Source: Botryllus schlosseri
Taxonomy: Eukaryota
Direction of reading: 5' to 3'
Length of the DNA: 64,000 bases
Assembly (NCBI GenBank): GCA_051294905.1
Contig: CM119372.1
Location: forward strand, 25,360,001 to 25,424,000
Made by a program: the position numbers and the translations under genes
Shown: positions 775-59,523 of the stretch, piece by piece
Layout: each line of letters starts with the position of its first letter
How positions within the stretch are numbered: position 1 is the first letter of the stretch
Notes under the pieces: generated by a model
What the model was told of the DNA's origin: nothing
The model's input: the letters and a program-made list of their open reading frames with translations, nothing else
Database searches by the model: none

Positions 775-1650
775 TCAATCACTGACACTCATTTCAACTG
801 CAAATTGCTTTCTGGCTGATTGGGTAGAGGATGACGCAGCTTGAGTCCTATTAATAGATGAGCTAACAATCTTTGGATTCAATTGTAGCTTATGAAAAAT
901 CTCATATTTCTTCGAAAGATGCTTGTCAACGGAATGCGAGTCTGTGACATTAGCAAGTGGGATTGAGCTATTTTGTCCAAGGGAACCTTCTTTTTCAGTG
1001 TACTCTCTTAGCAGATGATCCGTTCCACATTCGTGAAAGAGCCGCGTGTCATGAACTCTTGCCAACAAGCCATCCACTCTGAGATAGTATCGCATTAGCA
1101 GAAAAAAACATGATGGCATCACACGTATCTTCACACTCAGTTCTGCACATCCGTGATCTGCAAGTTCATCTTCGAATAATATGGCTTGTTCAAAATACGC
1201 TATCTTTTCTCGAACTTTCAACTTCTCTAGGTTAATACGCTCTTCAGTTTGTGTCACCGAGACAGCATTAGGTTCACCGTGAACAGTGCCTTTGTAGTTA
1301 GTCGAATAAGTCCAGTCAAATGGTTTGACAGTTTGATGGATGTATTCATTGTTCTTTCGACTCTCCATCCATTCCCTCGCTACTGCGACTTTCATCAAGT
1401 CGTTTTTATTGTCGACAAGTTTCAACGCGTCCAAGGCATTGAATTCTATCCTGAAACCATTTGAATTCGATATTCCTATATGATTTTCTCCAAAGGTCAT
1501 TTCTGGGATTTGTGGTATATCAAGACGCTTACAAATTTCTTCGGACTCAACAGAAGTAAGAATAGACCCTTTTGAAGCCGATATACACCAGGGGCCAAAC
1601 TTAAAGTCTTCCTTATGCTGCCCGATCGGGGTTCCGACTCTAGCGGCCAT
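775..1650 (-). CDS. TIPRL: TIP41-like protein (TOR signalling pathway regulator), single coding exon, 291 aa
   Basis: TIP41 motifs PEMTFGEN, PFDWTYSTNYKG, LFEDELADHG, KIRVMPSCFFLLMRYYLRVDG. The ORF-track start at 1683 is GTG with an in-frame TAG shortly upstream, so ATG at 1650 is the likely start. Splice acceptor (tttatttcag) at ~1711; candidate donor gtaagt at ~2017 (5' UTR intron). Confidence 0.95.
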   Translation of the reverse strand: MAARVGTPIGQHKEDFKFGPWCISASKGSILTSVESEEICKRLDIPQIPEMTFGENHIGISNSNGFRIEFNALDALKLVDNKNDLMKVAVAREWMESRKNNEYIHQTVKPFDWTYSTNYKGTVHGEPNAVSVTQTEERINLEKLKVREKIAYFEQAILFEDELADHGCAELSVKIRVMPSCFFLLMRYYLRVDGLLARVHDTRLFHECGTDHLLREYTEKEGSLGQNSSIPLANVTDSHSVDKHLSKKYEIFHKLQLNPKIVSSSINRTQAASSSTQSARKQFAVEMSVSD

Positions 1651-1835
1651 TTTGGATGAAATATTATCCACCGCTAAGGACACTGCTATAGAACTCTATA
1701 TTAGCTGAACCTGAAATAAAATCATAATTTCATTTCCAAGAATTCTTCTCCGAGGTGGTATCTTTGATTACATCAGCGAGGATGAAATTGGTTGGTGAAT
1801 GCATTCAAGGTATTTGATAGTACAACGATGAGCAC

Positions 1836-2010: not shown

Positions 2011-4649
2011 GACTTACGGTACCGGTACTGCTGGTGTCTTTCAAGGACGACAGTTGATATAAGCTATGATCATGACACTCGATGTTATTCATTATTTATT
2101 AGTTTATTTAGTCATGATATTCTTGGAATAAAACAACAAATAGCTGGCAATGATAATGTTCAGAAGTGGTGCACGAGAGGGGGATGAAGTTACTACTTCA
2201 AGTCGTTTCGGCATCTTCCGATCTTTTCATTTTATCGCAGTTTTGTGCTGTTTTGAAATGAACAGCTTCTTTGAGGTACAGAACTTCAATATACAATTGA
2301 ATAGTATATTCATATTAAAATGAACCCGAATATTTTCGGCTGACACTTGTCACGGGTAATCGTCAGCAACTAGTAGAGAATTCGAAAGAACAGCGTATAT
2401 CAACAATCGTAACAATCGTGTTTTGAAATGACGAAAATATTAATAAAACTGATACTGAAGTAGCATCCTCAAATAATTTCTAATTCTTCGCAAATTGATT
2501 TTTTGAGCCTTGTTATAGTTTTCAAACAATATTCTACAATTTTCTCTCACAATTTTGAAATTACAATACGTTACAAGAAACCACTAGCCTATGCAGTAGC
2601 CTATACAAGAGAGGTATCGTATATATAACAGTAACTGGAGTATGGCAGAAATTTTTGAAAATAACAATCAATGATATGACAAATAGTTTCAACAAAACCA
2701 AGCACTAAGGATCCCGTGATTTTGATGTCCCCTTGTAATCAGATCTTTACTGGGATTAGTAGTGCCTACATCAAGCCATCTCTGGCTTGGGAGACCTTCT
2801 CAAAGACAGACAGTTCGTTCTACCTCTATCGATCGTTTCCAAAAGGCAATATATGATATCGACTTGGCGCTACGACACTACCCCGAATCGCAACCTTGAA
2901 GCTGTAACACTCTGTAACACCTCCAGTCGGTATAGTTTCGTAACACTAGAAAGCCATGTTCACACTGAAGCAAATTTGCGATATATTTTTTACCGAAAGA
3001 GAGCTAATTGTGAATGAAAGTATTTCGAAAACCGCCTTCAGTATGAACAAAATCGTTTTCATAAATATTTTGGTAAATTATAGGCAAAGTGAACAGTGTT
3101 AGTTAGGGTAACTGTTTCGGAATTGGTTCGGAAACTCCAGTGTAAAGACACCCCAAGTCGAACGATAAGGTTATCGAGTAGGCCTAAGCCAGGCCAGAGT
3201 GGAATCGGTGGCAACTGCACGCGCAACGTCACATGAGCATTTATATCTGATCACGCCGATTAATGAATTATGCTGAGGTCACAAAGCGATACCAGAGTCC
3301 AGAATAAGGCGCTTGTGCTTTACAATGAACGCAAGCAAGCGTGGCATTTGCGCAACAGCGAATATATCCTGTTTGGAATCGGTGTCCTGTGCTCACACTA
3401 TATTTTATTTTTTAATTATTTTTTATTAAATTACTTCAACTTGGAAAATCATCGCTGCTCACCTGATATATCAGGAAAAAAGGCCAGTGATTCCAATCAG
3501 GGAATATATGGCGTAACCCTAGTCCGGCATATACAAGGTCTATTTTAGCACATTGTGTCATTTAATAAGTACCGTAATTCAGTATTGAATCAGCACGAAA
3601 AATGTTTCCGTCACGCGGATGAAATTTTCCAATTACGCAAGAAATCCGTCTGTCACGCACAACATGTTGTCGAAAACTATACCAACGATTCCAGTCTGAG
3701 GCCTAAGGAGCATAAGCACGAGTGCACGACTACCGGTCGCCGGTCGGTAGGTAGTGATTACCCCCATCCCACTCCACGCAGACAGACATAACAAGCGCCT
3801 AGCAATGATGGAAGCCGGGACACCAGTTATATAAGTAGGCGGAGGCTATTGGTCTGAACCGACCGGGTGTCCAACCTATATCAACAGGGGTTAAACCCGC
3901 TCAGAGGCCAAACGCCAGACGCCAAACGCCGCGCGGCGGCCGAATGTCTATGCGGCGTTTGGCGTCTGGTTTTCTGAGACGCCGAGTAGCTATACGGCGT
4001 TTGGCGTCTGTTATGTTCAGACGCCGAGTAGCTATACGGCGTTTGGTGTCTGTTCAGACGCCGACTAGCTATACGGCGTTCGGCATCTGGTATGTTGAGA
4101 ATAGGGTTTGATTTGAAGGTTGAGGCTTGAACAGGAGTTTTCTGCAGCTAAATCTAAGCAAAGCATGTCATATCATTGGCCAGTGGGCAAGTGATTTGAT
4201 GGTTGTTTCGTGTGTACCTGTACACTGACTGTACCGTATACGCGCTACTAAGTGACGACATGGCGTGTGCTTCGGTGCCCGGTCCACACTGAAGATCTGG
4301 CTGCTTGAGAACATACACGTTTCGTATTAGACAGATCGTCAGTCACGTTACTACAGATACTGCATGATTTGTTGCTGGGAACTTAACTACCGCAAGAAGA
4401 CTACAGTATGTGACGTGTAGTATCAAGATATTTTATTGTTTTCTAGTAGGCCTATATATAGTTAGTTAGTGATTGATTCTAGACTAGACTGAAACAGCTG
4501 CAAAATCCTTCGTATCTCCACTTCACGTATGCTGTGGTAAATCAACAGTTCGCGTCACTGAGATTGTATTCAAGACACACCTAAAATTTCGTTTCCATAT
4601 TACTCCGTAAAATTCTACACAAATATACTCCAAATGATCTTCGGTTGTG

Positions 4650-6537
4650 AGAAGTTCAAGGTTAAAGACCAGGATTGATGTTCAAAAAGATGGATGAAAT
4701 TGTGGAGTACTTGCTTTGAAGGTTTGTGATGCGTTCACGTATTGAGATTTGAGAAAATTGATTTGCAATCTACTTTCATGTAATAGGCCGTCGAACTCTA
4801 CCCGATGCAAACCTGGATTTTGATCATTCTCGACGAGCTTGCGAAAGCTACCGCCAGCAGTTTGGTCAAATCTTACATGATGCGACGGGTATGTTAGTCA
4901 ATGTTGGATTAAAACCACTTCAAATACGTAGTATGTTTTGCATGCAGATGAATAAGAATTGGGAGATTATTGCATTGAATGCAGTGGTCCAAACCCAATA
5001 AAAAAAAACATGAAATGGGTAGGGGAGATGTGGTACCGATGAGACAGTGGGACCGAAAATACTTGAAAAATTATCTGAGATAATCCTATGATTACGGTAC
5101 GCGAATTTGTCTACAAATGCATGCTGGCAGAATCTTTCACACTAACAAACCAGCCGTTATTTTTAATGTGAAGTGTAGGGCTTGTATCAGGGTATATAAT
5201 GCCACATCTTTTTTAATTCAATATCATCCTCGAGTTGACTATTTTCAATTCAATTACCATATTTATAGGGTGGGGGTCTATGGTACCATAACCAAATCAA
5301 GCAAAATGTTTGAACTCAACTAATCACTTAACAACAGAAACACGCCTACACATATAGAGGCTGCAAATCATAGTTTTCTGTGGTGCTTTATCGCTATAAC
5401 GAGGTAATTGAAAGTCAAAATGTCGATTTACGGGTAATATGTATGTGCCAATAATTTTGTTGTTTTGGGCGTAAATCGAAACGTGATTTTACTCCAACAT
5501 TTGAGTTGATATAATCAAACAATCTATTTTATTCTCGAAGGTGGTCCCAGGTCCCATGGTTGTGTCACTTGTGTGTCTTAGGACCTACCGAGTGGGGACC
5601 AATGATGCGTTCGAGCAACAAATTTTGAACGTTCATGAATATTTTTTGGAAAAGTGGATATTCATGTAAATGTCCAAGATACGTAGAGCTTGGATCAAAG
5701 TGTTGAGCCAGCAAAAGATATATTCTAGGCTGAAGATTTGAGGGCCAGAGATCATTTTGCAATTTTTGATCCATCGCAGGGTTGTAACTAAGTCACAAGG
5801 CTGCGAGTCACAAGTCAATCTCACTTTTATAGTTTTGACTCGAGTCAAGTCGAGTCATTTTCAATTTATCGCCGAGTCAAGTCCGAGTCCAAGTCATCGA
5901 GCAGAGGTTCGAGTCCGAGTCATGGTGTTATGACTCGAGTCTGAGTCAAAAGTCATTGTGTTGACTGCTCACTTTCCAGTTAAGGTCATGTTAAACCCAC
6001 TTTTATAACTCTATTTGATGATATCGAATGGTTTGCATTTATATTATACTAATTTTCCTCACATTTAACCGTTTCTGGTCGCATTTTCAAGTACCAGTAC
6101 TAATAGACAAAATCCCAATAAGGTGGTTACTTTACTGTTCTTCGAAATTACAATGAAATGTCGGTCTTTGCCGTCTGAGTCTCGAGTCATATGACTTGGT
6201 TCGAGTCATGAGCAATGACTCGAGTCCAAGTCGAGTCAATACGCAGATTGACTCGAGTCGAGTCAATACGCAGATTGACTCGAGTCGAGTCATTTCCGTA
6301 TTTTAAGAAAATGACTCGAGTCAAGTCGAGTCATCAAAAAATCGTGACTCGAGTCGAGTCATTACAACCACATCTTTCCTATGCAAACTTACGAGATTAC
6401 ATTTGTTAGGTATATTGATTCTAACTTGTTTCCAGGATGCCTGTGACGGCTGTGGTCGATGGACGCACAAGCACTGTTGCCCGGGACAGCAGATACCTGA
6501 TCCTGATTTTTATTGCATGCTATGTACCCAGATGTAA
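4650..6537 (+). pseudogene. Decayed 3' exons of a transposon gene: Ulp1/C48 SUMO-protease C-terminus plus PHD finger (copy 1)
   Basis: Exons ending 4721 (RIDVQKDG*NCGVLALK), 4787-4888, 4948-5018 (YCIECSGP...KW) and 6436-6537 (DACDGCGRWTHKHCC...FYCMLCTQM*), with GT/AG borders. C4HC3 PHD pattern is complete across the last two exons. Stops and frameshifts present. Confidence 0.75.
5022..6379. mobile_element. TA-flanked TIR element (Tc1/mariner-type) inserted at the splice donor of the PHD exon; contains a GACTCGAGTC-rich element from 5777
   Basis: Ends ggggagatgtggt / accacatctttcc with TA on both sides. The empty site tgggtatg matches the homologous donor at 58087. Confidence 0.65.
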
Positions 6538-6549
6538 ATTCTGATGTTG

Positions 6550-6860
6550 ATATATTTATTAGGGACATTTTACTGTGGTTTCGTTGCGTATTTACTAATG
6601 ACTTTTACTGTGGTTTCGTTGCTTGTTTCATAATGATTTTTACGGTGGTTTCATTGCTTATATCTCGGTCACTTTTAGTATGGTTCCACTGCTGATTTCT
6701 CAATGATGTTTGCTGTGGTTCCATTGCTTATTTTTCTGTGACTTCTACTGTGGTTCCACTGCTGATTTCTTTGTGACTTTTACTGTGGTTTTGTTGCTTG
6801 TTTCTTGATAATTTTTACTGTGGTATTCGTTGCATATTTCTTATTGTGGTTTCATTACAT
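6550..6860. repeat. ~35-bp degenerate minisatellite (acttttactgtggtttcgttgc...)
   Basis: About 9 tandem units visible just after the PHD stop codon, inside transposon copy 1. Confidence 0.8.
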
Positions 6861-8319
6861 ACTGTATCTACAGACTTGGGTCTGAAATTCATTGCGAGTG
6901 TACAAATAAAAGGTTGGGTTCAAGTCACTACCTTCGAGTCACGAGTCATTGCACATTTTGACTCACTCGAGTCAAGTCAAGTCATTTTAGCAAAGTGACT
7001 TGAGTCCAGTCAAGTCATACGAAAAAGGTGACTTGAGTCAAGTCATGACTCGAGTCATCCCAACACTGATATGGGGTGGTGACAGGGTTGTAACCAAGTC
7101 AATTTGACTCGAGTCATTTTCAATTCACCACCGAGTCAATTCCGAGAGCACTGAGTTGAGTCCAAGTCATGGTGTTTAATGCTTCCCCATCCAGTTCAGC
7201 TTCCGGTCACTTCTGTGGAACTCTCGGGGGTGATATCGAAGGCCTCGGATAATTCATATGTTCAATTTTCCCACTCTGAACATGTTTATTGTAACAGATA
7301 AAAGGCAGGTTTAGGGCCTATTTTTCATTTATCAGTCCTGATATACAATTCTTGAATAAGCCATAGAATGAGTAAATCCATTTTTAAGAAAATAACTCAG
7401 GTCAGCAAAACAATTGTGAGTCGAGTAAGTAGTATAACGACAGGAGGTGATCAAGTAGGTCTTTTTTGAATCTGAGCATACAATCATTTGGGATTCTGCC
7501 AACGCTTATTATGAAAAAAATGTAACAATATGCAATCTTCGGTATCATATAGTTGCGAGAACTCAATAGTCGCGCCATGAAAGGATTTAGCCTCTGCTCA
7601 GTTTACCGAGACACCAAACGCCGTATAGCTATTAGCTACTCGGCGTCTCATCATACCAGACGCCGTATAGCTACTCGGCGTCTGAACATAGCAGACGCCA
7701 AACGCCGTATAGCTACTCGGCGTTTCACCATATCAGACGCCAAACGCCGTATAGCTACTCGGCGTCTGAACATAACAGACGCCAAACGCCGTATAGATAC
7801 TCGGCGTCTCACTATAGTCTCTATAGTCTCACCATATCAGACGCCAAACGCCGTATAGCTACTTGGCGTCTCGGAAAACCAGACGCCAAACGCCATATAG
7901 ACATTCGGCCGCCGCTCGGCGTTTGGCGTCTGGCGTTTGGCCTCTGAGCGGGTTTAACCCCTACTCACCTATATGGTATATGACCTACTGATCGTGCAGA
8001 CGACGGTGCTCTATAGCTATACCAGTGACGCAGTGAGCTATCTTCTTGCATCTGGTTTGTTCTTCCGATAAACCAATACGAAAACACTGCGACTGGATAA
8101 ATTTTGATGACAACCTGAGCTGACAAACGCTGATAAAACGAACATGAAAATGAAACAGTGGTCTCGGACGGGCAATAAACCCGCAAATCTCTTAGCACAA
8201 TACACATACGCAGCTAACTGTGACCGCCATGCTACAATGAATTTGATTTAAAATTTTCCAAAACTTTAAAACTACACTAGATTCCAATATATCATTGACT
8301 ACTACCCGTTGGGTTATCA

Positions 8320-10589: not shown

Positions 10590-11401
10590 CGAAATGCACA
10601 TTATAACTAGCGACAACTCAGGTCATATTATGTCACGATACTGAAGTACATGCTTTTAAACTTTTTAAACGTCACCTAATGTATCACCTGGAACAATCAA
10701 ATGCTACAATAATTCCACAAACTCAATATCTTCCGTCGCTTTGCCAATAAATTCGACGAGTACTCGGCTAGACCGGGCTGATATATACTTGGGAGTGAAA
10801 CACCGGATTCTTTGCTTGCGGATATTATCTCAAACAAGTTATACAGTAGCCAACACCCCGATCGGTCACATTTGGTTTTTATGATACAATTAGGATATCA
10901 AATCAGGATAGTTCCATTACGCCTGATAGATTTTTAGATTAGACTTCGATGTATATTTATATCAATTTAGTTGATGTAAATAAAAAATTGGTTCACTAAG
11001 CACAATTCGTTGACTTGCCTACATGTAGTGTGTTTCGTTCTTGCTGTTGTGTGATTGCGGACAAAGCTCGCAGCAGACTGAGCAGAGAGTCACTAAAGAT
11101 TCACTAACGGAAAGCTTCATATTCGGAATAAACTTTCGAGCAAATAATTTTTGAAATCGGCAAAGTGCATGCTCTATAGTGCTGAATTGCTTTCATGCTG
11201 CCAGCACCATGCGAAGTGTGGTCGGATGTTGCAATGCAAATAATTTCAGCCAACGACGTTATAATGACGTGAAGAATTGTAATGCTTGAAAAAGGTCCAC
11301 AGTACAGAACCTACCAAGGCTCGTTTGTGAACGCGAACCTCCAAATTTCAGATGTTCACACACAGAACACGAACGTGAACCTCACGTTCAGACCATCTCT
11401 A
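10590..11401 (+). mobile_element. Truncated copy of the TAGGGATGGTGTGAAC hAT-type element family
   Basis: Colinear similarity to 42795-43630, including gaacgtgaacc subterminal repeats and the right end. Confidence 0.75.
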
Positions 11402-12375
11402 ATTGCAACCTTGTGGCATACGGCAGGGATGTCACACATTCGGCCAAACATACGGCCAAAAGGTTCAATGGCATTGTCCAGACTGCGGAAAATTATTAGA
11501 GTTTACCATATGAATGTAGCTTTGCACAAATGCTACACGAAAGTCAGAATAAATAGGCGTACGATATATATTGACATGTGTTGTATTTTACAACTTATCC
11601 GGCTCTATTTTAGAGCATTCTATGCAGACATGGGGTGATTACTTCATGGATGTAATCGATTGCGATTACGATTACTTCTGAATGACGCGATTACGATTAC
11701 GATTACGATTACAGCAAAATCAGGAAGTAGTCGATTACAATTACGATTACATTGGAAAAGTAATCACGGTTACTCACGATTACATTTATTTTGCATCTTA
11801 AAAGTTATATCGGAAGACAATATATGGATTGCGCTGAAAAGGCCTAATGAGATAACAAACTTCCTTTAAAAAAGATGCGTCATTGGCTTGTTACGTCATC
11901 ATGTACTGATTGCCCATTTTTATAGAAGTCGATTTATCGCACCCAACGAATTGCATTCTTGCCAGGTCCATAACCGCCGCCAAAATTTCCCAATAGGGTG
12001 GGGAGCGAGATCGAAGGGGACTCAAAGATATTTCGTAAACCAACATAAATTATACAGTCTTTTCGAGAGATTTAATTAACTTCAAAATTCTGTCTGGATA
12101 GCTTGATTTAGAAATGCATACGTCTCCTCCTAAAAAAGCATACATAATTTATAGTAGGGTTGCATTTAAAACAAATGGTTGTTTAAAACACTTTGTTTGA
12201 AACATGTTTTATACGGTGCTTTAAAAACAAAGGCTTAAAAAAACTAAATTGTGTTTTTAAAGTTGTAACATTATACCATAATCGTGTAAACACTTTCCAA
12301 AAAACATTTTGTATGAGCCTACGGACAATTACCACCCGATTTGGCCGACGTACATCGATATGGGTCGGTTGGAAC

Positions 12376-14855
12376 CATGGCTTTGGAGCCGGAGCCGGAG
12401 CCCCGGAGCCGTGAATTTCTACCGGAGCTGGAGCCGGAGCCGGAGCTCTATATAAACTTCAGCAGGAGCCGGAGCTGGAGCTAGTTATTTGAGGGGTAGC
12501 TCCGGCTCCGACGTATTTCATATGATGCTATTATATATGCAACAACCATATCTGCCGAGTTCACATACTTCAACAGCAGGCCTTCGCGAAATTAAGAATC
12601 TTTTCCTCTTTGGCGCTACCTTATCCGACTAACCATGTTCCTGGGGATTTAACAGCAGAGCAGTCATATGTTCAATGTTCAATTTTCATACATGAATGCC
12701 GAAGCTCGGTATGCTAGAAATGCCTGTGAATATTATGGGTATTCGGCATACCCGCAATTTCATCATCAGCACAACCTTGTTGGCCAATTGTACGGTTCGA
12801 AAATAATGATCACTATGCATTCATGCTGGTGACGTCATATTTTGTGATACGATTGTTGATATACAATGTTCTTTCCAATTCTCTACTAGTTGCTGACGAT
12901 TACCCCTGACGAGTGTCAGCCGAAAATATTCGGGTTCATTTCAATATGAATATACTATTTAATACTATGCATTACGCGAAATGGGAGAGAGGATAAAAAC
13001 GTGATTTCGTTGCACGATGCACATGTCGAATTGTCGATATGACGAGCACGAGCCGAGAAATTCCATCTCATTGTTGCTATGAATCGGATGAGCAAATACT
13101 CGTTCTTTCGTGATAGTTCGTTAATCGGGCCGCGAAATTGGACAGTGTTAGTGAGTATGCAATTATGCATGCGAATTGGAATTCCTTACTGCGCATGATC
13201 GTCATTCACTCCAGTAAGGATTTTCGAGCGTGAATAGGGGATGGCAGAAGAGTAACCCAAAACGCCGTTGCACTCAGCGAACAATTGTCGCGGTGCGAGC
13301 GACTCAATGCGACGTCAGGACCCCAGGGTATTTATGTTGGAGACAAATTACTCATTCGATACGCGATTTCAAATTTGTAATCATCTGTTTCGTAAATTCT
13401 TTCTTGATGTCTGCTTGATACTCTAGTATTCACGGATTATCGCTCACTGTGACTTATAAATGTGCAATGCGCATACTGCATATTTTAATTCGTTATGGGC
13501 ATGGCGCAATGTGCATGGCACAGTGTTTAATTCGATTATTCGATTCGTTTCAATGGGAAAATATTATATTCCGATAAACTTGATCGACACCGGATGGACT
13601 GGTAACGAGTGCATAAATATCGAACGTCAAACCATTGGCCATTTGGTACAAATCGAATTTTTATTGATGAGGTCGTGATCTCCGCCCATATTGCTCTTAC
13701 TATACAGTTACAGTTGAATAATAATCGCATATTTAAAGATTGAATTGAGCTGTATGGCTTAATGTTAACGAGTACAGTGCCAGTGTTAAAACGCCACATC
13801 AGAATTTTCATACCGTGCACAGCAATGGCATGAAGTAAAGTGCGTTCTAGTGCAACTATGATGTTATCGACAATTGACAAATTCATTATGACGTCACAAG
13901 CCACGGCGGCACCTATGTCTTCGTTGCTGCATCCGATGTAACTGACGGCTGACAGACTCTAGATTACTATCTACGGGTAAATTAGTAATCTATACAGACC
14001 AGGGGTGGCCAACCTTTTCGGCTAAAGGGCCACATGAAATTGACGAACGAGGGCGCTGCCCACTAGGCGCACCAGCGCGTAAAATTTTCAAAGTTAATAT
14101 TATTATTACTTGGGTATATTGCGGGTCAACTGTATACCGCCCGCTGGGCTCAGTTTGCAAGGACAGGACTATTCGGCATCTGGGCATATCGATATCGAAG
14201 ATTTGCGCTAATATACGACAATCATTTTGTGCCTAAATTTCATCGTCGACGATTTTTCTGCGAGCGCAAACGCGAAAAGACTTTCTCTCGTAATTGCGAA
14301 TATAGTTAGATTCAATCGGCTAAATCAGGCGTTTTTTCATTTTCAGGAGGGGGTAGGGTACAAAGCAAGAAATTGTGTGACAATTAAACACGCCAAGCGT
14401 GAAGAAAAATTTTACTACTCTTCTAGTTTATTGTAATGTACGACGATTTACTTGAAATGTGACTGGACCGTGGATCTGCCAATGCGTCAGAACTGATATG
14501 TTAGTCATCAACATCCCAAGTGTTGCGGCCAGACTAATCATATTTTTGGTTGGCCTTTCAAGTTCACAATCTGAGCAATTCAATATCGATAATATACCAG
14601 GATTTCGATAATATAATGGGAAGTTAGCTCGCGGGCTACTCAAAACCTTTTCGCGGGCCACATACGGCCCGCAGGCCGCGGGTTGCTCACCCCAGATATA
14701 CACAGGCACCTTCGATAGTATACAGAGGCGGAGCCGGAGCTGGAGCCGGAGCAGTGGTAATAATGCGGCTCCGGAGCTGGAGCCGGAGCTAGTGTATGAT
14801 AGAAGAAAGCTCCGGAGCTGGAGCAATGCAAATTTCCGGCTGCTCCAAAGCCCTG
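12376..14855 (+). mobile_element. hAT-type element C (GGAGCC subterminal repeats) nested in B
   Basis: TIR catggctttggagc / gctccaaagccctg; TSD gttggaac/gttgaaac. Second copy at 53759-55050. Confidence 0.9.
14000..14695 (+). mobile_element. hAT MITE D nested in C
   Basis: Ends caggggtggccaacc / ggttgctcaccccag; degenerate TSD atacagac/atatacac. Confidence 0.85.
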
Positions 14856-14899
14856 GTTGAAACCCTCAAAATAGTCTGTTCAACAGTTATAGTCTAGAT

Positions 14900-16460
14900 C
14901 AGTGGCCTGGAACCTTTTATATCGAAGAGCCATATTGGCCCAATATTTTCAATTGTAGCTCCCAAAGAGCCATACATGTCAATAAACTGTTACGTCACAA
15001 TTGTAAAACCGTGACGTTCTGGTGGCACTAATATATGGGTTCCGTAGTGTGCGCCATATTTTTCTGTCCACGTGCGTAGTTGGAGTCTTAACATTTCTCA
15101 CTACAGCAGTGGACCTGCATACCCACTGCAGGGTGAGATACGTCCGTGACGTTGGATTAAGGTTGGGAAAAGGAGGCAGTGCATCATATGTCGTCATAGC
15201 TGAGCGAAGGAAAATTGTGAAACCTTCAATTAACGATTGGTATTTTCTATCGATGTTTAATATTGACTATAGATTTCGAACATTTTTATTCCCAAAATCA
15301 CGGAATTTTCATATTTATTGTTAGAAAATAAAGCACGAAAGGAAGGGTAAGGCAGAGATGAGTCACAGACGCGCCAAGCCTCGCCTGTGATAGCGGAACT
15401 CTTCGTAAATAGCTTGGAAGTTATATTCACTGGAAATGATCAAATGTAATTGTCGCGCTGATTCCGAAAATCAAAGTACTGATCGACTTATTAAGTATTA
15501 GGCGTACGTAACGCTGCGCTACATACCTACATTTTTACGGCGGTGCTAGAAAGCTATACTTACCAATCAAGAACATGGATAGCTATTGCGTTGTTTCTAA
15601 TATGAATTTGTAATTGTGAATGTCACTTCCAAGTCAGTTTATGTCCCGGCGTAGATTAGAAAGACAATGTGTATTTGAAAATTGCATTGTCCTACAAGCG
15701 TGTCAGGCCATGTCCACTATTCTCTTCGATCAATCAAAGTATCGTGCAATCCAAGATTTCGACGCGCGCGATGGCGAGTCTAGATCGAATTCGCGAGTTG
15801 TGATAGTCGTCGGAGCGACAGCAACTTAAATTTGGGGATTTTGGTAAGGAGGATGAGGATGAGGACGGTACCAGAACCTAACCCTAGATCAGTGGTTCTC
15901 AACGTGAGCGATATCGCCCCCTAGGGAGCCATTTGGCGGTCTAGAAGGTCGGAAATAATGAAGGGGGCGATAGGGGAACGAAAACGGACAAAGGGGGCAA
16001 TAGCGCTTGAAAATAGCTATATTGGAGTCAAGTCGGAGAAATTACCTTTTTTTAGTTAACTCTCGAAAATGTAGCTGTAAAAGTGTATTTACGAGGTCAG
16101 GTCGAGCCGATAAGTTAACCTTTTTTTAGTCAACTCGCCGGTGATTACAGTTTGTATGCCCAATTTTCGGTACCCAATATTTGGGGGGGGGAGATAATCG
16201 GTGTGGATCTTGAAAAGGGGGCGATGAGTCGGAAAAGGTTGGGAATCACTGCCCCAGATAGTGGATATTCCACTGTCTTGACCTCTAAAAGACATGCTTA
16301 TACTGCCACGGGAAAAATTATTGTGCCTGTCATGAAAATTTACTAACAAGTGGATGCAATATTCATAAAATACGCAACAAATCAAGAATTTTTCAAAGAG
16401 CCATATGTTACACCCGAAAGAGCCATATATGGCTCGCGAGCCATAGGTTCCCGACCACTG
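14900..16460. mobile_element. hAT (Charlie/Buster-like) element E nested in B
   Basis: Ends cagtggcctggaacct / aggttcccgaccactg; exact TSD gtctagat. Confidence 0.9.
15890..16251. mobile_element. hAT MITE F nested in E
   Basis: Ends cagtggttctcaac / gttgggaatcactg; TSD ccctagat/ccccagat. Confidence 0.85.
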
Positions 16461-17796
16461 GTCTAGATAATTCGTCAAATGAGCTATATTTACTCTATAT
16501 TCTCAATTGTCAATCTCAATCCACTAGGACGTCACAATTTTATATTCGTGACGTCGTGGTTTAAAAAAAACATTTTTTAAACAAGGGCCTTGTTTTAAAC
16601 ATGTCTGTTTTAAATTGATTTTTGTTTTAAATGCAACCCTAATTTATAGTAATAGGCATTTAGGTGCCAGTGAATACCGTGCCACGACACACCAAAAGAT
16701 ATACGCAGTTTCCACCAACATGCGACTTCACGAAGTGTGCTACTAACGAAAGACCTTGGTCGAAACTTAAGGTATGTGTCCGTTGTCAATAGCCACGCTG
16801 GGTAGACGTGACTAATAGTACGGCCCTTCCAATTTGAGCTCATAATGCAAATGCCACCTGGGTCACCCACAGAGTTTTAAAGACATGACAATTTGTGTGT
16901 GCGTCTCACCAAAGTTCTTGCGCCACTTCAATATCTTTTGATTATATAACAGACCGGAGGTCACGAATTAACAACATAAACTAAAGCAATTATAACAAGA
17001 TACCGGACGTTATAATTATGAATTACGTGCTCCCAGCTCTAATGGCAAATCTGACCATCGGGGCTGAGAGAGGATTAAAAATTAATAGTAATATAATGCA
17101 ACTATACTAATAATATTGACGAAATTCAGTCTTCAACTTGAAAATACCACCATATGGGGCCAAAGACCAACGTTTGGAGTGGGGGACGAATTGCTGTTTA
17201 GGTCCAGATTCTAGCTACAACCCACGCTAACATGGTATAGAACTTCTATATATATATATATATATAGAACTTCTATAATAGAAGCCCATGGCCATGGCGG
17301 CAGGTCCCAATGTTGAGTAAAGAATGGTGAAATAACGATTGACGCCTGTTTCAAGTAGAGTCATATGAGAACAAGATGAAGCCGGGGCCCGATGATGCGA
17401 ACACAAAATTCTGCCATCAACTTCATACAGATAATGTACTGCAAGCTGCCGTTACGTGAAACGGCAAAGACGGCTCGGCTATGATATATATCATTAGCTG
17501 TTGATTTTTACTGCTTCCTTGTGGAAACCGTAATGTTTTATTTGGCGAGTACAAAATTTCAAATCTTTGTCCGGTGTACGTACGTAGTACATAGGCCTAC
17601 TGCTCGCCAAGAAGCAACGGTCAAACTGCGTTTAACTAAGCATAGCCAAACATCAATACATAAGTCACTATTTTAAACTAGGCAGAATGGAGATTAATTA
17701 TCCTGCTGCGAGGGAGTGGCGTATGGAACGTGTTGATAACCTGAAATACAGCACGGTGGGTGTTCTTACAATCACACTAATGTAGGCTACGTAGTC

Positions 17797-18610
17797 CAGG
17801 GTTGCCAGACATCTTTTGCGAAAAAGGGCCAAACAGCGCCGGAAAAGGGGCCAAAAGGGGCCAAAAAGGGCCAAATTGTTCAATAACGTCAATAACGTTG
17901 CAACATTAACCATAGACACCTGGAATTCCAGTTTTATATTGTTGATACTGTTGTAGGACACCAAATCCACTACCTGCAACTACACTGGATCCAACTGCAA
18001 TAACTGCTTCATTGTTTCAAGCCTTTTCCGACTGAATATAAAATCATAAAATAAATCTTTTTGTGCTATAATATAAGAGTGATTAAATTTTATGAATTTT
18101 CATTAAACATTGAGAGAATAGTTTTTTACATTTGAAAGTTATCCAACTTAATATATATACCTAATTTTTAGGTTTTTCACCAAAAAACTCTACGGTTATG
18201 TTGCATTTTTTTCTTTGAAATTTCTATCAATCATTAAGTACTATAAGGGTGCTCTTCTTCAGACTTTTTCTGCTAGATAGCTTCCATCTATGTTCGATGC
18301 TTTTTCGTCCACCTGTTCACAAACCTGTATTTACAATTCCAACACAGTCTACATTCTACAAAACCAAATCCAAATCTTCCACAGTGTTTCCACTCGAATC
18401 TTTGACATTGGCATAAACATTGTCAGCTCAATTTGCGAGATAGATTTATTTGAATACTTAGTTTGACGGTATGTCTCAACTGCTTCCAAAAAGGGCCAAA
18501 AATTGAAAATAAAGGGCCAAGGGGCCAAATTATTATTTTGGGGCCAACAGCCTCTAAAAAGGGCCAAATTTCACGAATTTGGCCCCGAAAGGGCCAATCT
18601 GGCAACCCTG
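17797..18610. mobile_element. hAT (Blackjack-like termini) MITE G nested in A
   Basis: TIR cagggttgccaga / tctggcaaccctg; gggccaaa subterminal repeats; imperfect flank repeat ctacgta. Confidence 0.8.
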
Positions 18611-19774
18611 CTACGTACATCGAATATCTATTTACTGTGGATACTTCTTAAGTAATGGCGAGCAAAGCTAATAGGCTACTTCTGACGTAATAATGAGCAA
18701 TAGCATTTGGAAATCAGACGTGTGTGCTATCGCGAACCTGATATAATATCTCTTCCTTGCTCACGAATGTTCAGTTTATGTCATAGTCCTTGTACAAATA
18801 AAAAGTAATCGTTCTTTCACTAATAAATCGATTAGATATGCGAAGTAGTCGATTACGATTACGATTACTTCGGATTTTTTTCGAATGTAATCGATTGCGA
18901 TTACGATTACTTGAAAATGCTGTAATCGTCGTAATCGATTACGATTACTAATCGTGATTACCCCATGTCTGATTCTATGTCATAAAGTAGAGCAAGTGTT
19001 GGGAGCCGCCAACTATTGATGCATTTGATAGGCTGCAACGACATTTAAAAAGAAAGAGAACCACTGGCGTAATAGCGTGGCATAGTATCAAGTTTGTTAT
19101 GTATTCTTGCTACTGCCTTATCTTATACGTGTATTAGTTGGTTGTACATGTTATCAGTAGGGCAAGTTTTTGTTGCACTAAAATCACTAAAAAGTTGCAT
19201 TTATTTTTTAACAAAAGTTGCGGTAAAAAGTTGCATTTATAATTTTTGTTGAATTATTAGGGTATGGGATACTCGAAAGGTTCCGCTGAATAAGCTATAG
19301 TTTCTGCAGAGCTGTCAAATTTGTTACTTTATTGCCATTTAACGCACGGTCTGGCGAAACCACCAAGAATTTCATTTTTTCCGGCACATAGCAAGAAAAT
19401 TATGCAATGCGAGAATAATTTCCCCCCAAAAGCCAAACAGCATAGCTATGACCCCCTCCCCCTAAAAACAAGTCAGATACCACACTCGAAATTCTCTAGG
19501 TCTGCAAACTTGACCCAAGGCGTTGCAGAGAGAAACTCACTCTTAGCGACTTTAACAACATCTATAGCCTGAATAAGGTGATCCAGTAAAAATGTAATTT
19601 TCGGCGGTCTCGCCTGGGCGTTCATGAAATGGGAAACTACCTCAAATTTAAACGAAAGCATCAATAAAGCCATCTATTTACATATTGTTCGGACACGGTC
19701 GTGCTTGGCGGGGTAGTTGAACTTTCTGCTTGCAAGCCATTGTGTCGTAGATAACACAGTGAGATGCAGTTAAC

Positions 19775-21927: not shown

Positions 21928-23235
21928 CAGGGTTGCCATACCGTCCTTATTTCTAAGATTTGTCATCATTTTGAAGGGCCACGCCTTAGAAAACTCAACT
22001 GTCCTTATTTCTAAGAAATGTCCTTGTTTTCGATTTGCGTCCTTATTTTGTCTTATTTTCAACAAATATACAGAACTTTGATCGTTTTCCTCTGGTATCT
22101 GTGTTGCATAATATTCTAAAATTATGCTTTTGGGTCGAGATTTTTTGACATAAATGAAAGGAACTCCCGTGGCGTACACACCACAGGATTTGACTTCTAA
22201 GTGGTGAGATAGCAAGGGCAGTGAGTGGTATAGCAGTTTCGGTTGTACCAAGCTATTGCAGTGGACGTCATTTTAGCAGTAAACAGCAGTAACAGGTTTC
22301 TGCTGCTTAGTCTACAGCAGAATAAGCTGTGGGGAAGGCAGCATTTATTGCGTACTGAAATGGTCTCGGTGCAGTCAACTCTTCGGTAAAAAAGTAGCAT
22401 AGCTATAAACCATTGATAAATTGATCTAAATTATATTGCCCATATAGTTTTAGCTACTAATAAGGCTAAATCTGATTAGTTGAAATGAACAGGCGTAAAA
22501 ACGTTTTTCGTGACGATTATGAGAGAGAATTCAAAGGTATCAAGCGCAACTTCAAGGACGAGTGTTTCGCACATTGCAATATCTGCAATTGTGACATTAA
22601 CTTGCAGGCCATAGGAAAGACCGCTATTTCAACCCACATTGATACCCCAAAACACAGGAAGTGCGTCATAATGATTAATTCGTGCCAGTCGATTATTATT
22701 CTTTTCACAAGTCGATCAGCACCAACGACCACAGACTACAAGGCAGCTGCTGCTGAGGGTCTGGGCATTCTATACTGTCAAACACCAGCAATAATTCCTC
22801 ACCAACAATTGGACATCGCAAATGTTCGAAGCAATATTCGCCGATTCTAATATCGCCAAAACGTTTGCTTTGGTCAGGACCAAAACTAGGGGCTTTGTTA
22901 CTGGAGTTCTTGCTCCATCCGCTAAAAAATGATTTTGTCTAAACTTGGTGTAGAGCCTTTTTCCATCTTGATCGTCGCCTCTAATCACAACGAGGTGAAG
23001 AAGTCTGGTTTATCTTTATCACCCTATGGGGGGCCAAGACCAACGTTATTTTTTTGAGGGGGGTGACGAAGTGCTCTTTCGATCTAGTTGCTGGATCAGG
23101 CTGTTTTTGGTGAGAAGTATGGAATGTGATTTGCCACGGCTCGTATAAATACAAAGTATGTACAAAGACGCTTTTTAATGCTAATCTAATTTTTCCACTG
23201 TCCTTATTTTGGGGTCTATGTCGATGCCAACCCTG
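21928..23235 (+). mobile_element. Internally deleted hAT transposon (Blackjack-like termini)
   Basis: TIR cagggttgcca / tgccaaccctg; TSD gttgtagc/gttatagc; gtccttatt subterminal repeats; carries a transposase relic. Confidence 0.88.
22485..23000 (+). pseudogene. hAT transposase N-terminal fragment (BED/TTF-type zinc finger to first catalytic-D region)
   Basis: AHCNICNCDINLQAIGKTAISTHIDTPKH. After a frameshift: WAFYTVKH...MFEAIFADSNIAKTFALVRTKT...VLAP, then (D>V)ASNH. Stops present. Confidence 0.8.
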
Positions 23236-55050: not shown

Positions 55051-56959
55051 GTTCAAAGGCATGCATATACTCTTGTAATTTGACACATTCGTCAATCTTG
55101 CATCGGTGACTCAGCGATATTTTTATTTCTTTTGCTATTTACAATAGACAGAAACATATCTTAACGCAAAATATCCATACGGTCACACAGACCAAATATT
55201 GCCGACATTTCGAACTTGATTCACCGTGTGCTAACATTCCCTAGTGATGAGAGTCAGCCGAAAACCTTTCAATGAACAAATCAGGAATATGAACAATGGA
55301 CATATTGATTCTTGCAATTCATTCTGATGTGTCTATTATGATAACCAAGTGCGGACTAAAAAATGACTAGAAAAAATTATTGACTCAATACTGTGACTAC
55401 TCGATTTTTCGTACAATCACTCGGACTCGACTGAGCTTGGACTTAACTCGATGACAAACAAATGACTCGACTTGACTAGAAAGCTGTGAATGAATTGTAA
55501 CTCGGAGCCTGAGACGGGGTTAAACCCGCTAGACGCCAACCCGCCACACGCCAAACGCCACCCTGCGGCTGAGTCTCTACGTGGCGTCTGGCGTCTGAAC
55601 GTGTTGAAAGTTGAAACGCAGACTGGCGGCTGAATCGCTACATGGCGTCTGGCGTGTGAACGTGTTGAAGCGCAGACTGGCGGCTGAATTGCTACATGGC
55701 GTCTGGCGTCTGAACGTGTTGAAACGCAGACTGGCGGCTGAATTGCTACATGGCGTCTGGCGTGTGAACGAGTTGAGACGCAGACTGGCGGATGAAGTGC
55801 TATATGGCGTCCAACATTTTAGGACGCTGTACTACAACATGGCGTTCGGCAATTTTGTGACGCCGCGTTAGATATCGGAATCATGAACTGAACCACAAGT
55901 TTGTATTTCTTTCTAATTAGAGATATAATTCTATTGCTAGGTTTATATAGCTCAGTGGTTGAAACGCAGACTGGCGGCTGAATTGCTACATGGCGTCTGG
56001 AGTGTGATCGGCTTGAAACACAGACTGGCGGATGAAGTGCTATATGGCGACTGGCGTTCAACATTTTAGGACACCGTACTGCGACTTGGCGTTCGGCGTC
56101 TGGCAATTTTGAGACGCTGTGCAGTGTGCAGGTAGCCAGTTGCATAGCGTCTGGTGTATAGGATATGATTTATAGGCAAAGTTACTCATTGAGATGGAAG
56201 GGAGTGCTGGTGAATCAAAGTGATTTATCGCTGCATTATTATCTTCCTCGATGGAGGAATAATGTCTGGTACCATAGTGTCCTATATGGTGTTTATATAG
56301 CTCAGTGGTCTCGACACAAGTAAATCTCACGGCTCAATGAAATCGGTCCACGTCATACTTTAGTTACATTTAGTCAAAGGCAAATTGACGGCGATTTTTG
56401 ACTGGCTTGCCGACCATTCAATTTGATGAAACGGGTATCAATTGAAAGCTGACGCTGCACTGATTACGAAAATATAAATAATGTTTCGTTCGATGCCCTG
56501 GAACCCCCATAATAAGCCTCGAATTTTTAATTGTTATGGAAATTGACATAGTGACGCAACAATGCTGTCTGGCGAAACGAGATCGACACTATGCTGCTAC
56601 AGTTATTTGTTTGGTTGCTGGATGTGTTTCCTTGTAGCAATGGCAGAAATGACTTTAGCTGAGGACTTGACGCACCTTATTAAAATCGTTACAGTTGAAG
56701 AAAATAGTTGCAGTCCATGCGACATCAGTCTTGAAACTGTGCAAAAGCTACATGATCATATTGAGGTAGTACACTGGGCTAACCGTGTAGAACATACCGT
56801 CCGGCCAGATTTACAAGGTTTGTCGATATTTTGTTTTATAGCCTACTTGCATACCGTCCTTCGCACTTCTTAGAACTAGCCTTTTTATTCATAATCGCAT
56901 GACGTAGCTGGCTAGCGACGTAGTTACGTAGATTACATCAGACGCAAGACGTCAGTACG

Positions 56960-57460
56960 TACAAATTAGACGCAGCCCGTGGCGTCTGCCTAGCTGATAT
57001 ATCCGACGCCACGCGTCGACATATACAAGTTAGATGCACCCATGGCGTCTGAATAGTTGATATACCAGACGCAAAGCGTCGGAATGTACAAATTAGATGC
57101 ATCCTGTGGAATCTCGATAGAGGATAGACGATATACATACAGACTCGAAACGGCGACAATCGACATGCACAATTTAGACGCAGCCCGTGGCGGCTGCATA
57201 GCTGATATATCCGATGCCACGCGTCGACATATACAAGCTGGATGCACCCGTGGCGTCTGAATAGTTGATATACCAGACGCAAAGCGTCGGAATGTACAAA
57301 TTAGATGCATCCTGTGGAATCTCGATAGAGCATAGACGATATACATACAGACTCGAAACGGTGACAATCGACATGCACAAATTAGACGCAGCCCGTGGCG
57401 GCTGCATAGCTGATATATCCGACGCCACGCGTCGACATATACAAGCTAGATGCACCCCGT
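56960..57460. repeat. 208-bp tandem repeat (~2.4 copies) built from three related subunits
   Basis: The unit recurs at a 208-bp offset (duplicated ORFs at 57057 and 57265). Subunits begin caa(a/g)ttaga(c/t)gca. Confidence 0.85.
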
Positions 57461-57641
57461 TACATCCACTGCAGCAGATGGCAAACGCCAAAATATCTAT
57501 TTATCCAATACTCAGTTTGAAATTCTTCTTCTTCATTTAATTGTAATTGTATTTGCAGCATGTCTGGGTGAAATACTAAATTCAGGGGTATCCTTTGCCC
57601 TCTCAATTCGGAGTTTGACATTTTAATATATATTTATACAG

Positions 57642-58247
57642 GTATATAGAATGACATTGTACTCCAAAAGAAAGTTTGTGACAAGTCCAAGGACTGAATT
57701 GGACAGGACTGATGTACAAAAAGATGGATATAAATGTGGAGTACTTGCTTTGAAGGTATTTGATACTTTCATGTATAATTATGTAGTATGGCTCGAATCG
57801 AATAAATGATTTGTACCCTACTCTCACTAGGCTGCTGAACTCTACTGTACAAGTGAGGCATCAATTCCTGATGTAGATCTACAGTTCGATCATTCTGCAC
57901 GAGCTTGTGAAGACTACCGAAAGTACTATGGCCAACTTCTACTTGATGAGACCGGTATGATACTCCATGTCACATTGATGTGAATCAAGCAAAATTATAA
58001 TAATATCAAACTATTTTCTGTACAGATGACGGAGAATTGGCAAATTATTGCAATGAATGAAGTAGTCAAATGCAATGATCACGGATTGGGTATGGATTTG
58101 AAAAGTTGATTTGTCCAGTATGATAATCCAAGTATTTTATAGGTTGCATGTGACGGCTGTGACCGGCGGACATACCAGGATTGCTGTTACCCAGGGCAAG
58201 ATCTACCATCTGGTCATTTTTATTGTGCTCGTTGCACTGCAGAATAA
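57642..58247 (+). pseudogene. Decayed 3' exons: Ulp1/C48 protease C-terminus plus PHD finger (copy 2)
   Basis: Exons 57642-57755 (RTDVQKDGYKCGVLALK), 57831-57954 (AAELYC...QFDHSARACEDYRKYYGQLLLDET), 58026-58089 and 58143-58247 (VACDGCDRRTYQDCC...FYCARCTAE*). Same intron positions as copy 1. Confidence 0.78.
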
Positions 58248-59523
58248 TTTGAATATAGTTACTTGAATTCTCATTCATCTCCATGCGAGTGTAAGGAGGG
58301 GCAGCAGAGACTAGTCAGGGGGAACCGGAGCTACGCAGTTGTTTTTAGTTATTAGGATTACTGATTTCGCAAAACCTGGCAATAGAATTATATCTCTAAT
58401 TAGAAAGAAATACAAAATTGTGGTTCAGTTCATGATTCCGATATCTAACGCGGCGTCACAAAATTGCCGAACGCCATGTTGCAGTACAGCGTCCTAAAAT
58501 GTTGGACGCCATATAGCACTTCATTCGCCAGTCTGCGTCTCAACCCATTCAGACGCCATGTAGCAATTCAGCCGCCAGTCTGCATTTCAACACGTTCACA
58601 CGCCAGACGCCATGCAGCAATTCAGCCGCCAGTCTGCGTTTCAACACGTTCACACGCCAGACGCCACGTAGAGACTTAGCCGCAGGGTGGCGTTTGGCGT
58701 GTGGCGGGTTGGCGTCTAAGCGGGTTTAACCCCTGTTGCGGAGCCTCGTGACTTGGTTACAAAACCCTGCAGAAATGACAACCAATATTCCTGCCGCTGG
58801 TCTGCAGAAATGACTTTTGGCTCAAATAGTTCAAAGGGATAGCCAAATTTCTGATTTATTCACATTGCTACATACGCGATGAAAAATTATTTCAACAAAA
58901 CACGTTGTCCAAAGAGCACAAGTAACTTATGCGCATGCGATTGGTAGGCCTATTGGTTTACCAAAGTACCAAGACACTTAACGTGGTTATCAATGTCCGT
59001 CCATAATGTCCTATATGGCTTGGACTGTGGGCACAAGCAAATATCACGGCTAAGTGAAATTGGTCAACGTCACACTTTCCATTTGGCTAAAGGCAATTTA
59101 ACCTTAATTTTTGACCGGCTTGCCGAGCGATAAATTTGATAAAAATCACCTTAAAAAAAACGAGTGACTTGACGTGACTCGAGTCACCTTGGAACATCGA
59201 TTGACTTGACTTGACTTGAGTCAAAATGTGCAATGACTCGAGATGACTCGCGACTCGAAGGTAGTGACTTGATCCCAACACTGGTTCACAAATCATATTC
59301 ATGTGGTCCATGATTCTCCCTCCACTCCATGGCTAAGAGCAAATCGGCCTCTTGGAGTTTCACTGCCACCCAGCGTGGCATAAAATGGAAATAGTTAGCT
59401 CGGCACTTCTGATCAACTATACGTATGGTTAATGGAAACTCTCGTGACGGCTTTCCGATATAGAATTCATTTTGTTCATCGAAAGCGCCGAATATATGTA
59501 TGCATGTAATTGCGTATGTAGGA

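Follow-up and report, generated by a model that had tools for sequence, protein, structure and literature searches.

Two related transposon copies lie in the window, i.e. the whole stretch of 64,000 nucleotides of Botryllus schlosseri DNA analysed here (contig CM119372.1). Both are probably non-autonomous, internally deleted cut-and-paste DNA transposons of the Zisupton (KDZ) group, and they represent two subfamilies of one such element. The relics can probably be regarded as ordinary members of the Zisupton group with one odd twist. Two decayed copies by themselves have little importance. If their GAG/CA caps are general, transposase-less Zisupton derivatives would be separable from Mutator and hAT elements with target-site duplications (TSDs) of equal length.

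Element ends and target-site duplications

A preliminary description of this DNA had placed two copies with exact 8-bp TSDs at 3882-7966 and 55511-58738, and both were recovered there with the following terminal features.

3882-7966, copy 1, whole element
3874..3881, no strand, copy 1 left TSD, ACCTATAT
3882..3886, plus strand, copy 1 CA-type cap CAACA
7962..7966, minus strand, copy 1 GAG-type cap GAGTA, downstream of the gene
7967..7974, no strand, copy 1 right TSD, ACCTATAT
55511-58738, copy 2, whole element
55503..55510, no strand, copy 2 left TSD, CGGAGCCT
55511..55515, plus strand, copy 2 GAG-type cap GAGAC, upstream of the gene
58734..58738, minus strand, copy 2 CA-type cap CAACA
58739..58746, no strand, copy 2 right TSD, CGGAGCCT, then the tip of the CAGGGTT-family element interrupted by copy 2

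The 14-mer GGGGTTAAACCCGC has four exact matches in the 64-kb window, and these are the four element ends (3887 plus, 7948 minus, 55516 plus and 58720 minus). The inverted core thus sits 5 bp inside each end, as first described, and the inverted repeat begins just inside mismatched tips in 2/2 copies. An end-offset grid (441 pairs per copy) gave an 8-bp duplication at (5,5) only, in both copies and with no extension to 9 bp. This sole solution agrees with the earlier claim that an exact 8-bp TSD appears only when the outer pentamers are included. In a random control, 8 bp at (5,5) occurred in 0/20000 position pairs and anywhere in the grid in 151/20000. The right-TSD junction of copy 1 is also present, with one difference, in contigs 7938/7941-8349/8348 (runs X4, X1).

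Some statements of the preliminary description needed adjustment. The outermost pentamers are indeed unlike in both copies; in copy 1 the fifth base, A, is common to both caps, so the mismatch there spans four bases. Once copy 2 and one TSD were excised in silico, the joined flanks aligned continuously with the element end at 5777, and the 'intact end' said to be restored is so approximately, with 121 matches, 26 mismatches, 38 gap columns and a 2-base indel near the tip.

Arms and arrays

Inside the caps, both copies carry arms filled with tandem units.

3887..4105, plus strand, copy 1 left arm: 14-bp core and 4 array units of ~42 bp
7585..7961, minus strand, copy 1 right arm: core and 7 array units
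55516..56124, plus strand, copy 2 left arm: core, 5 units of ~54 bp, unique inner arm to 55944 and a displaced block of 2 further units
58372..58733, minus strand, copy 2 right arm: core, 4 array units and unique inner arm
6568..6840, no strand, copy 1 35-bp tandem array, downstream of the stop codon and transcribed in sister copies
56934..57460, no strand, copy 2 internal 63/208-bp tandem array, with motifs resembling arm motifs

Compared between copies, the arms are 80-83% alike over ~82 bp; within copies, 85/88 and 51/52 bases are alike. This supports the two subfamilies proposed earlier. The right arm of copy 2 matches its left arm at 93% over 319 bp. Since likeness within a copy is far above that between copies, exchange between the two arms of one element is implied. 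Array length tracks the caps and not the gene, with 4 units at the CA ends of both copies and 7 and 5+2 units at the GAG ends.

The decayed gene

Both copies hold four decayed exons of an Ulp1-type protease tail plus a PHD finger, with GT-AG introns at the same positions and ~66% DNA identity between the exons of copy 1 and copy 2. Ulp1 exons had been reported before and were found in both copies; the remnant is not Ulp1 alone, as it includes the PHD finger.

4665..4721, plus strand, copy 1 exon A (3' part): contains the Ulp1-type motif Q-x-D-G-x-x-C-G and one stop in frame; homologous to copy 2 exon A
4787..4888, plus strand, copy 1 exon B: a deletion shifts the frame, 102 nt vs 124 in copy 2
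4948..5018, plus strand, copy 1 exon C: first half of the PHD finger, one stop
6436..6537, plus strand, copy 1 exon D: second half of the PHD finger and the stop codon
57642..57755, plus strand, copy 2 exon A: open, with a catalytic Cys motif of the Ulp1 type
57831..57954, plus strand, copy 2 exon B: open, matches the Styela clava protein P0002 (see below)
58026..58089, plus strand, copy 2 exon C: frameshifted, with two stops
58143..58247, plus strand, copy 2 exon D: second half of the PHD finger, Gln where copy 1 has the zinc-binding His

For copy 2 exon A, the top ESM Atlas matches are Peptidase_C48 clusters (score 0.96), and the Ulp1 reading overall draws on Atlas matches to such clusters at 0.95-0.97 and a weak CE-clan protease structure match (E 0.04). 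Pfam gave no match for copy 2 exon A and no direct match for the Ulp1 tail. Pfam matches to the PHD finger were obtained for exon D of copy 1 (PHD_2, E 0.008; PHD, E 0.037) and of copy 2 (PHD, E 0.00069), none of which reaches the curated cut-offs.

The segment 4483..4600 (plus strand), which reads HFTYAVV, may be one more Ulp1 exon and hold the catalytic His strand, the likeness being judged by eye. It has no Pfam match, and RNA of sister copies starts in its bin. A possible N-terminal exon of copy 2 (~56577-56780) and a possible transposase remnant of copy 1 (4243-4410) were dropped, as each had neither a Pfam match nor a counterpart in the other copy.

Search for a transposase and relatives

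Neither the two copies nor any longer relative yielded a transposase, and the superfamily is therefore only inferred. In 8/8 read-through frames of the interiors, plus strand only, Pfam returned 0 families, with no KDZ (PF18758), SWIM, SAP, CxC or MULE domain. Loss of the KDZ domain is expected in deleted copies. Searches for long relatives gave weak negatives with the exon A-B read-through (0/29 candidates), alignment A4 (0/1664) and P0002 (0/78) as queries. The Zisupton/KDZ lineage of the preliminary description stands as the likeliest group, while KDZ, SWIM and SAP were not detected and no full-length relative was found.

A profile search of 1.84 billion representatives gave two matches. 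P0001, a nematode chemoreceptor, was matched via intron-derived columns and dropped. P0002 is an uncharacterised 128-aa protein of the ascidian Styela clava (XP_077975953.1) and a spliced relative, with 29-47% identity per exon tested. Its parts are arranged as in exons A-D, with an Ulp1-type Cys motif first, then a two-helix linker and a PHD finger; it differs in being annotated as a short stand-alone protein and does not name the transposase. In viral contigs, 0/9 stretches with likeness to P0002 were confirmed. Matches to the end-core pattern at 3 viral and 49 metagenome loci were attributed to chance, as 0/52 had a second end or protein likeness; the best outside match was a single one of 32 bp (L044).

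The case for Zisupton

The 8-bp TSD, subterminal repeats and SUMO protease put forward earlier as Zisupton markers are common to Mutator-type elements. They are not diagnostic, because asymmetric tips and array arms occur in a Mutator family, and Ulp1 plus PHD in Mutator and Ginger1. A better argument, and what we consider the best support, is that two nematode Zisupton families are shown in print with GAG/CA tips. According to the available part of PMC9297572, Pristionchus pacificus OG0000357 and OG0001158 are Zisupton families placed by PF18758. In its Fig. S6B the upstream ends read GAGGA.. and GAGTA.., the downstream ends, reverse-complemented, read CACCT.. and CATTA.., and the two ends begin to match just inside the tips. 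The cap GAGTA is identical to that of copy 1. As in these families, mismatched GAG-type and CA-type tips and a multi-exon gene are present here, and the GAG end lies upstream of the gene in copy 2. The nematode elements differ in being 8-9 kb long, with KDZ-domain proteins of 1166-1367 aa, short repeats and no TSD detected (PMC9297572, same part), whereas the copies here are relics of 3-4 kb whose array arms are long, with TSDs of exactly 8 bp, an Ulp1-PHD tail only and, in copy 1, reversed polarity. Since the authors found no TSD, the printed rows may not start at the true ends. The tip match itself concerns two families and 2-3 letters per end, was noticed post hoc and is not a defining rule established in print.

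Zisupton and related KDZ elements have 8-bp TSDs (PMC12730594, available part; PMC11343200), and the canonical KDZ layout has CxC and SWIM domains beside the transposase (PMC11343200). Zisupton genes are multi-exonic, with 18 and 31 exons, and this trait is present here in the form of four exons with intron positions common to both copies. Fish Zisupton, as reportedly described by Bohne et al. in 2012, has a C-terminal SUMO protease and subterminal repeats. The C-terminal Ulp1 trait is present here as well and is not specific to Zisupton. Fish Zisupton also has the 8-bp TSD (PMC12730594, available part) and the multi-exon gene in common with the relics, which differ in having no KDZ, SWIM, CxC or F-box part and a PHD finger after the protease. 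No PHD finger in Zisupton was found in the literature examined. Among nine fungal Zisupton 5' ends, in the part of the source available, all begin with CAG, CGG, GCC or GGG and none with GAG. No statement of a GAG/CA cap rule for Zisupton was found in the literature searched, the founding paper and Repbase being outside its reach. The available parts of PMC3706591, PMC12062965, PMC3424704, PMC7599744, PMC5718144, PMC3573991 and bioRxiv 2022.05.23.493040 hold nothing on Zisupton ends.

Gene orientation relative to the caps

In copy 2 the gene runs away from the GAG end, like that of the nematode families; in copy 1 it runs towards the GAG end. This opposite cap polarity relative to the gene was not in the preliminary description and is new here. 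Caps that differ naturally mark the polarity of the ends, so flips of a transposon interior can be seen and counted; where the terminal repeats are perfect, an interior flip is invisible. On the basis of two copies only, the interior of copy 1 appears to be flipped relative to its caps.

A transposase from an intact relative would bind the repeated arm motifs and cut 5 bases outside the 14-bp core, which would leave the two tips free to differ (GAG end, CA end), and insertion would proceed via an 8-base staggered cut. The protease and PHD tail of the parent protein may tune SUMO/ubiquitin-like marks and chromatin contact. Near-identity of the two arms within one element would allow interior inversion. 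A crossover between the arms would invert the interior and leave the caps, outer arrays and TSD in place, so that the copy 1 gene points to the GAG end while the copy 2 and nematode genes point away.

It is also quite possible, if not what we favour, that the opposite orientation is an old lineage difference, or that copy 1 is a hybrid formed from the ends of two neighbouring elements. The subfamilies are well diverged, as the exon identity given above indicates, and the available part of PMC3169594 ascribes to crossover between elements a Tm1 copy whose two ends bear the same motif. Against this, the number of array units goes with the caps in both copies and the gene does not, and copy 1 combines a CA cap and a GAG cap with an exact TSD.

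Extending the inversion reading beyond copy 1, animal Zisupton from nematodes to tunicates might have a conserved GAG/CA two-ended code outside otherwise identical arms, read by the transposase at the cut, plus an invertible interior cassette that flips without harm to mobility. We consider this generalisation rather doubtful. If the end code is true, the caps would quickly identify transposase-less Zisupton derivatives and open a way to study asymmetric cutting in a superfamily without biochemistry.

Other superfamilies

It is unlikely that the copies derive from a Foldback-type Mutator element (Phantom/Tm1- or Rehavkus-like) with a transposase ending in Ulp1 and PHD. The closest comparison is Tm1, a Phantom/Foldback Mutator of root-knot nematodes which, according to the available part of PMC3169594, has asymmetric 7-bp motifs outside composite inverted repeats filled with variable tandem units, and TSDs of 8-10 bp. 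Array-filled arms with unlike outer caps are present here too, with cap length and letters different from Tm1: its caps, CGGTTAA and CCTACCC, are 7 bp long and both begin with C. In the same part, its TSD is mostly 9 bp and its protein a 496-aa FLYWCH-MULE one, with no mention of Ulp1 or PHD. MULE TSDs of 8-11 bp and a PHD finger in Rehavkus are given in the available part of PMC6446971, and the Fig. 1e legend in that of PMC2836005 has Ulp1 and PHD of Mutator transposases aligned. Rehavkus and Ginger1 are, like the relics, transposons with Ulp1 and/or PHD (same parts of PMC2836005 and PMC6446971); Rehavkus differs in its 9-bp TSD (PMC6446971, same part). The TSD is exactly 8 bp in 2/2 copies, which falls within the MULE range and is not its usual value; Tm1 and Rehavkus TSDs are mostly 9 bp in the parts available. 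No MULE domain was found in the relics (Pfam, interior plus-strand frames).

In hAT elements, the inverted repeats reach the terminal base and the TSD is 8 bp; here the tips are mismatched in both copies. Origin from hAT or another 8-bp-TSD group (Merlin, P/Galileo), or from an unnamed group that acquired the same Ulp1-PHD tail, is very improbable. In its favour, 8-bp TSDs are usual in hAT and P, Galileo has array-filled arms, an Ulp1 tail is common to unrelated transposons (PMC2836005, available part) and no transposase-bearing relative was found. Against it, the matching-tip elements with 8-bp TSDs in the window (e.g. 11625-18971, 12155-16641, 27785-29083) have repeats from the first base, unlike copies 1 and 2. 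Ginger1, the other carrier of Ulp1 plus PHD, has a 4-bp TSD and TGTNR ends (PMC2836005, available part), neither of which was seen in either copy.

Nested insertions and sister copies

Copy 1 itself holds nested insertions.

5022..6379, no strand, nested insertion in the C-D intron, with ends GGGGAGATGTGG / CCACATCTTTCC and a TA duplication
5777-6370, CAGGGTTGTAAC element inside the 5022..6379 insertion
6906..7068, no strand, nested short repeat

Reads were mapped on copy 1, and the mapping was swamped by the nested repeats. Among the differences (40/867), joints (15/2056) and loose ends (24/6349) listed, none lies at the caps, and the same 15/2056 joints include no empty-site joint and no intron (splice) joint. 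The RNA evidence comes from one raw-read run; among the indexed runs, no RNA match is on record. Copy 1 has sister copies that are present many times over and are transcribed. They do not have the 5022..6379 insertion, as indicated by the joint 5021->6389 (runs X4, X8), nor the 6906..7068 repeat, for which the joint 6905->7069 is present in runs X1, X4 and X8.

Element ends and internal polarity

Both Zisupton-like relics (copy 1, 3882-7966; copy 2, 55511-58738) have well-defined ends. A search of the whole window returned four exact matches to the 14-bp core, one at each of the four copy ends. In each copy, the outermost five bases outside the core (the cap) read CAACA at one end; the opposite cap is GAGTA in copy 1 and GAGAC in copy 2. 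An exact 8-bp target-site duplication (TSD) appears in both copies only with these five bases included (1/441 offset pairs per copy), and at that 5-base offset 0 of 20,000 random position pairs carried an 8-bp duplication. The core at these four ends and a TSD needing the outer pentamers, as claimed in the preliminary description, are thus confirmed. Copy 2 broke the tip of a CAGGGTT-family element, and the rebuilt empty site aligns with the family's end at 5777. Contigs from two DNA runs of a single sample also contain the right junction of copy 1 and show one difference there; that sample may be the window's source and is hence not independent. Both copies are a real pair of non-autonomous elements.

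Every arm consists of the core, a short spacer and tandem units, with a unit length of about 42 bp in copy 1 and 54 bp in copy 2. Arms are near-identical within copies (85/88 and 51/52 bases) as opposed to 80-83% between them, indicating two subfamilies and, within each, homogenised arms. Copy 2 has, in its left arm, a displaced array block bracketed by a 19-bp direct repeat (55942-55960 and 56293-56311), which suggests a local duplication.

Both CA-end arms have four units; of the GAG-end arms, that of copy 1 has seven and that of copy 2 has 5+2. Copies 1 and 2 both carry their exons on the plus strand, while the opening cap is CA in copy 1 and GAG in copy 2, a reversal unmentioned in the preliminary description. 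Since array length follows the caps and the gene does not, the caps together with the arrays make up a single polar frame, in which the gene lies in either direction. Judging from two copies, the simplest cause would be a crossover between near-identical arms of one element, which would invert the interior and leave caps and TSD untouched. The opposite orientation may instead be an old lineage difference.

Gene remnant and superfamily

Four exons (A-D) are present in either interior, with GT-AG introns at identical places. Exon A carries the motif Q-x-D-G-x-x-C-G, and its top ESM Atlas matches are Peptidase_C48 (Ulp1) clusters (0.95-0.96); exon D matches Pfam PHD below the curated cut-off. A profile search yielded two proteins, one of which was dropped as spurious. 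The real one, Styela clava XP_077975953.1, contains the same exon A-D parts in spliced form, and its neighbours in the Atlas are clusters with Ulp1+PHD, most of them chordate. Both copies are dead: in copy 1, exons A and C contain stops and exon B is frameshifted, and in copy 2, exon C has two stops plus a frameshift.

Fish Zisupton elements have a SUMO-protease tail and subterminal repeats. A Pfam scan of eight plus-strand read-through frames of the interiors found no transposase and protein searches found no long relative, so superfamily membership has to be inferred. The pair probably belongs to Zisupton, as initially proposed, given its 8-bp TSD, multi-exon gene and GAG/CA tips. Zisupton TSDs are described as 8 bp (PMC12730594; PMC11343200) and its genes as multi-exon (PMC9297572). 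According to the supplement of PMC9297572, two families with the Zisupton-group transposase domain KDZ start upstream with GAGGA.. and GAGTA.. and end downstream with CACCT.. and CATTA... This matches the GAG/CA pattern of the two relics, and the upstream position of the GAG end matches copy 2. However, this likeness rests on two families and few letters and was noticed post hoc, the authors report finding no TSD in these two families, and 0/9 fungal Zisupton 5' ends examined from PMC12730594 start with GAG. Such ends may already be recorded in Repbase, Dfam or bioRxiv supplements.

The features on which the assignment was first based are not diagnostic, because Mutator elements (Tm1 and Rehavkus among them) and Ginger1 each share some of them. 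A Mutator-type origin is a distinctly weaker prospect. The Mutator family Tm1 is described with unlike caps, array-filled arms and TSDs of 8-10 bp (PMC3169594); Rehavkus, another, carries a PHD finger, and its TSDs are 9 bp long (PMC6446971). Ulp1 and PHD are reported from both Mutator and Ginger1 transposases (PMC2836005); any other superfamily is improbable. Beyond ordinary relics, the pair offers a possibly conserved end code and an apparently flipped interior.

Proposed mobility and sister copies

The copies have a cut-and-paste footprint, polar ends and a decayed gene tail, and belong to a multi-copy family. They would have been moved in trans by the transposase of an intact relative, which may bind the arm arrays, cut a constant number of bases beyond the core and make an 8-base staggered target cut on insertion. 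In the parent element, the protease and PHD tail might target SUMO-type marks as well as chromatin; PMC2836005 puts such a role forward only as a proposal for tails of this kind.

Copy 1 bears nested insertions; contig joints show that 5022-6379 and 6906-7068 are absent from sister copies. The former has the ends GGGGAGATGTGG and CCACATCTTTCC and a TA duplication (a Tc1/mariner-type footprint), contains a CAGGGTTGTAAC element without its right tip and is of very high copy, judged from contig depth. In DNA run X4, depth is 95 for the lone junction contig and 1349 (place 4242) to 6669 (place 6469) for interior contigs; these depths, which are no copy number, point to tens of similar copies. In run X8, a joint from 4008 to 7848 hints at a short derivative, roughly 260 bp long. 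A high-depth X8 contig connects 4139 to 4294 through other, non-window sequence, possibly a site where sister copies are longer. In copy 2, a 117-bp piece (56315-56431) is 77% identical to a repeat just outside (59032-59144), another nested fragment.

Reads from one raw RNA run fall on 4402-4902 and 6406-6906, at 38-117 per strand bin. Their letters differ from the window at 4565 (96/98 reads), 6441 (124/128) and 6469 (162/167), as do those of most DNA contigs. The source of the RNA is therefore either sister copies or a different allele rather than the copy 1 sequence itself.

Surrounding window

The window is animal DNA, with an intronless TIP41 gene and an ascidian protein as the exons' closest spliced relative.

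Other features of the window
775-1695, minus strand: intronless TIP41/TIPRL gene (Pfam E 4.8e-64), about 2 kb from copy 1
11625-18971, 12155-16641, 27785-29083, 42352-42620: other 8-bp-TSD elements, hAT-like; exact TSDs, repeats from the first base, CAG or TAG ends
22476-22850, plus strand: 124-aa frame, Cys/His pattern resembling a transposase zinc finger; no Pfam match
35539-36342, 47532-47924, minus strand: frames resembling cadherin/protocadherin gene parts (by eye)
13802-14862 and 53980-55057; 10793-11404, 42916-43633 and 63270-63998: two more dispersed repeat families (identity 71-84%)

Element 12155-16641 is nested in 11625-18971, and a 196-aa frame within 27785-29083 resembles, by eye, the end of a LINE reverse transcriptase. 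Relative to the apparent start of the cadherin/protocadherin-like gene, copy 2 sits about 7.6 kb upstream.
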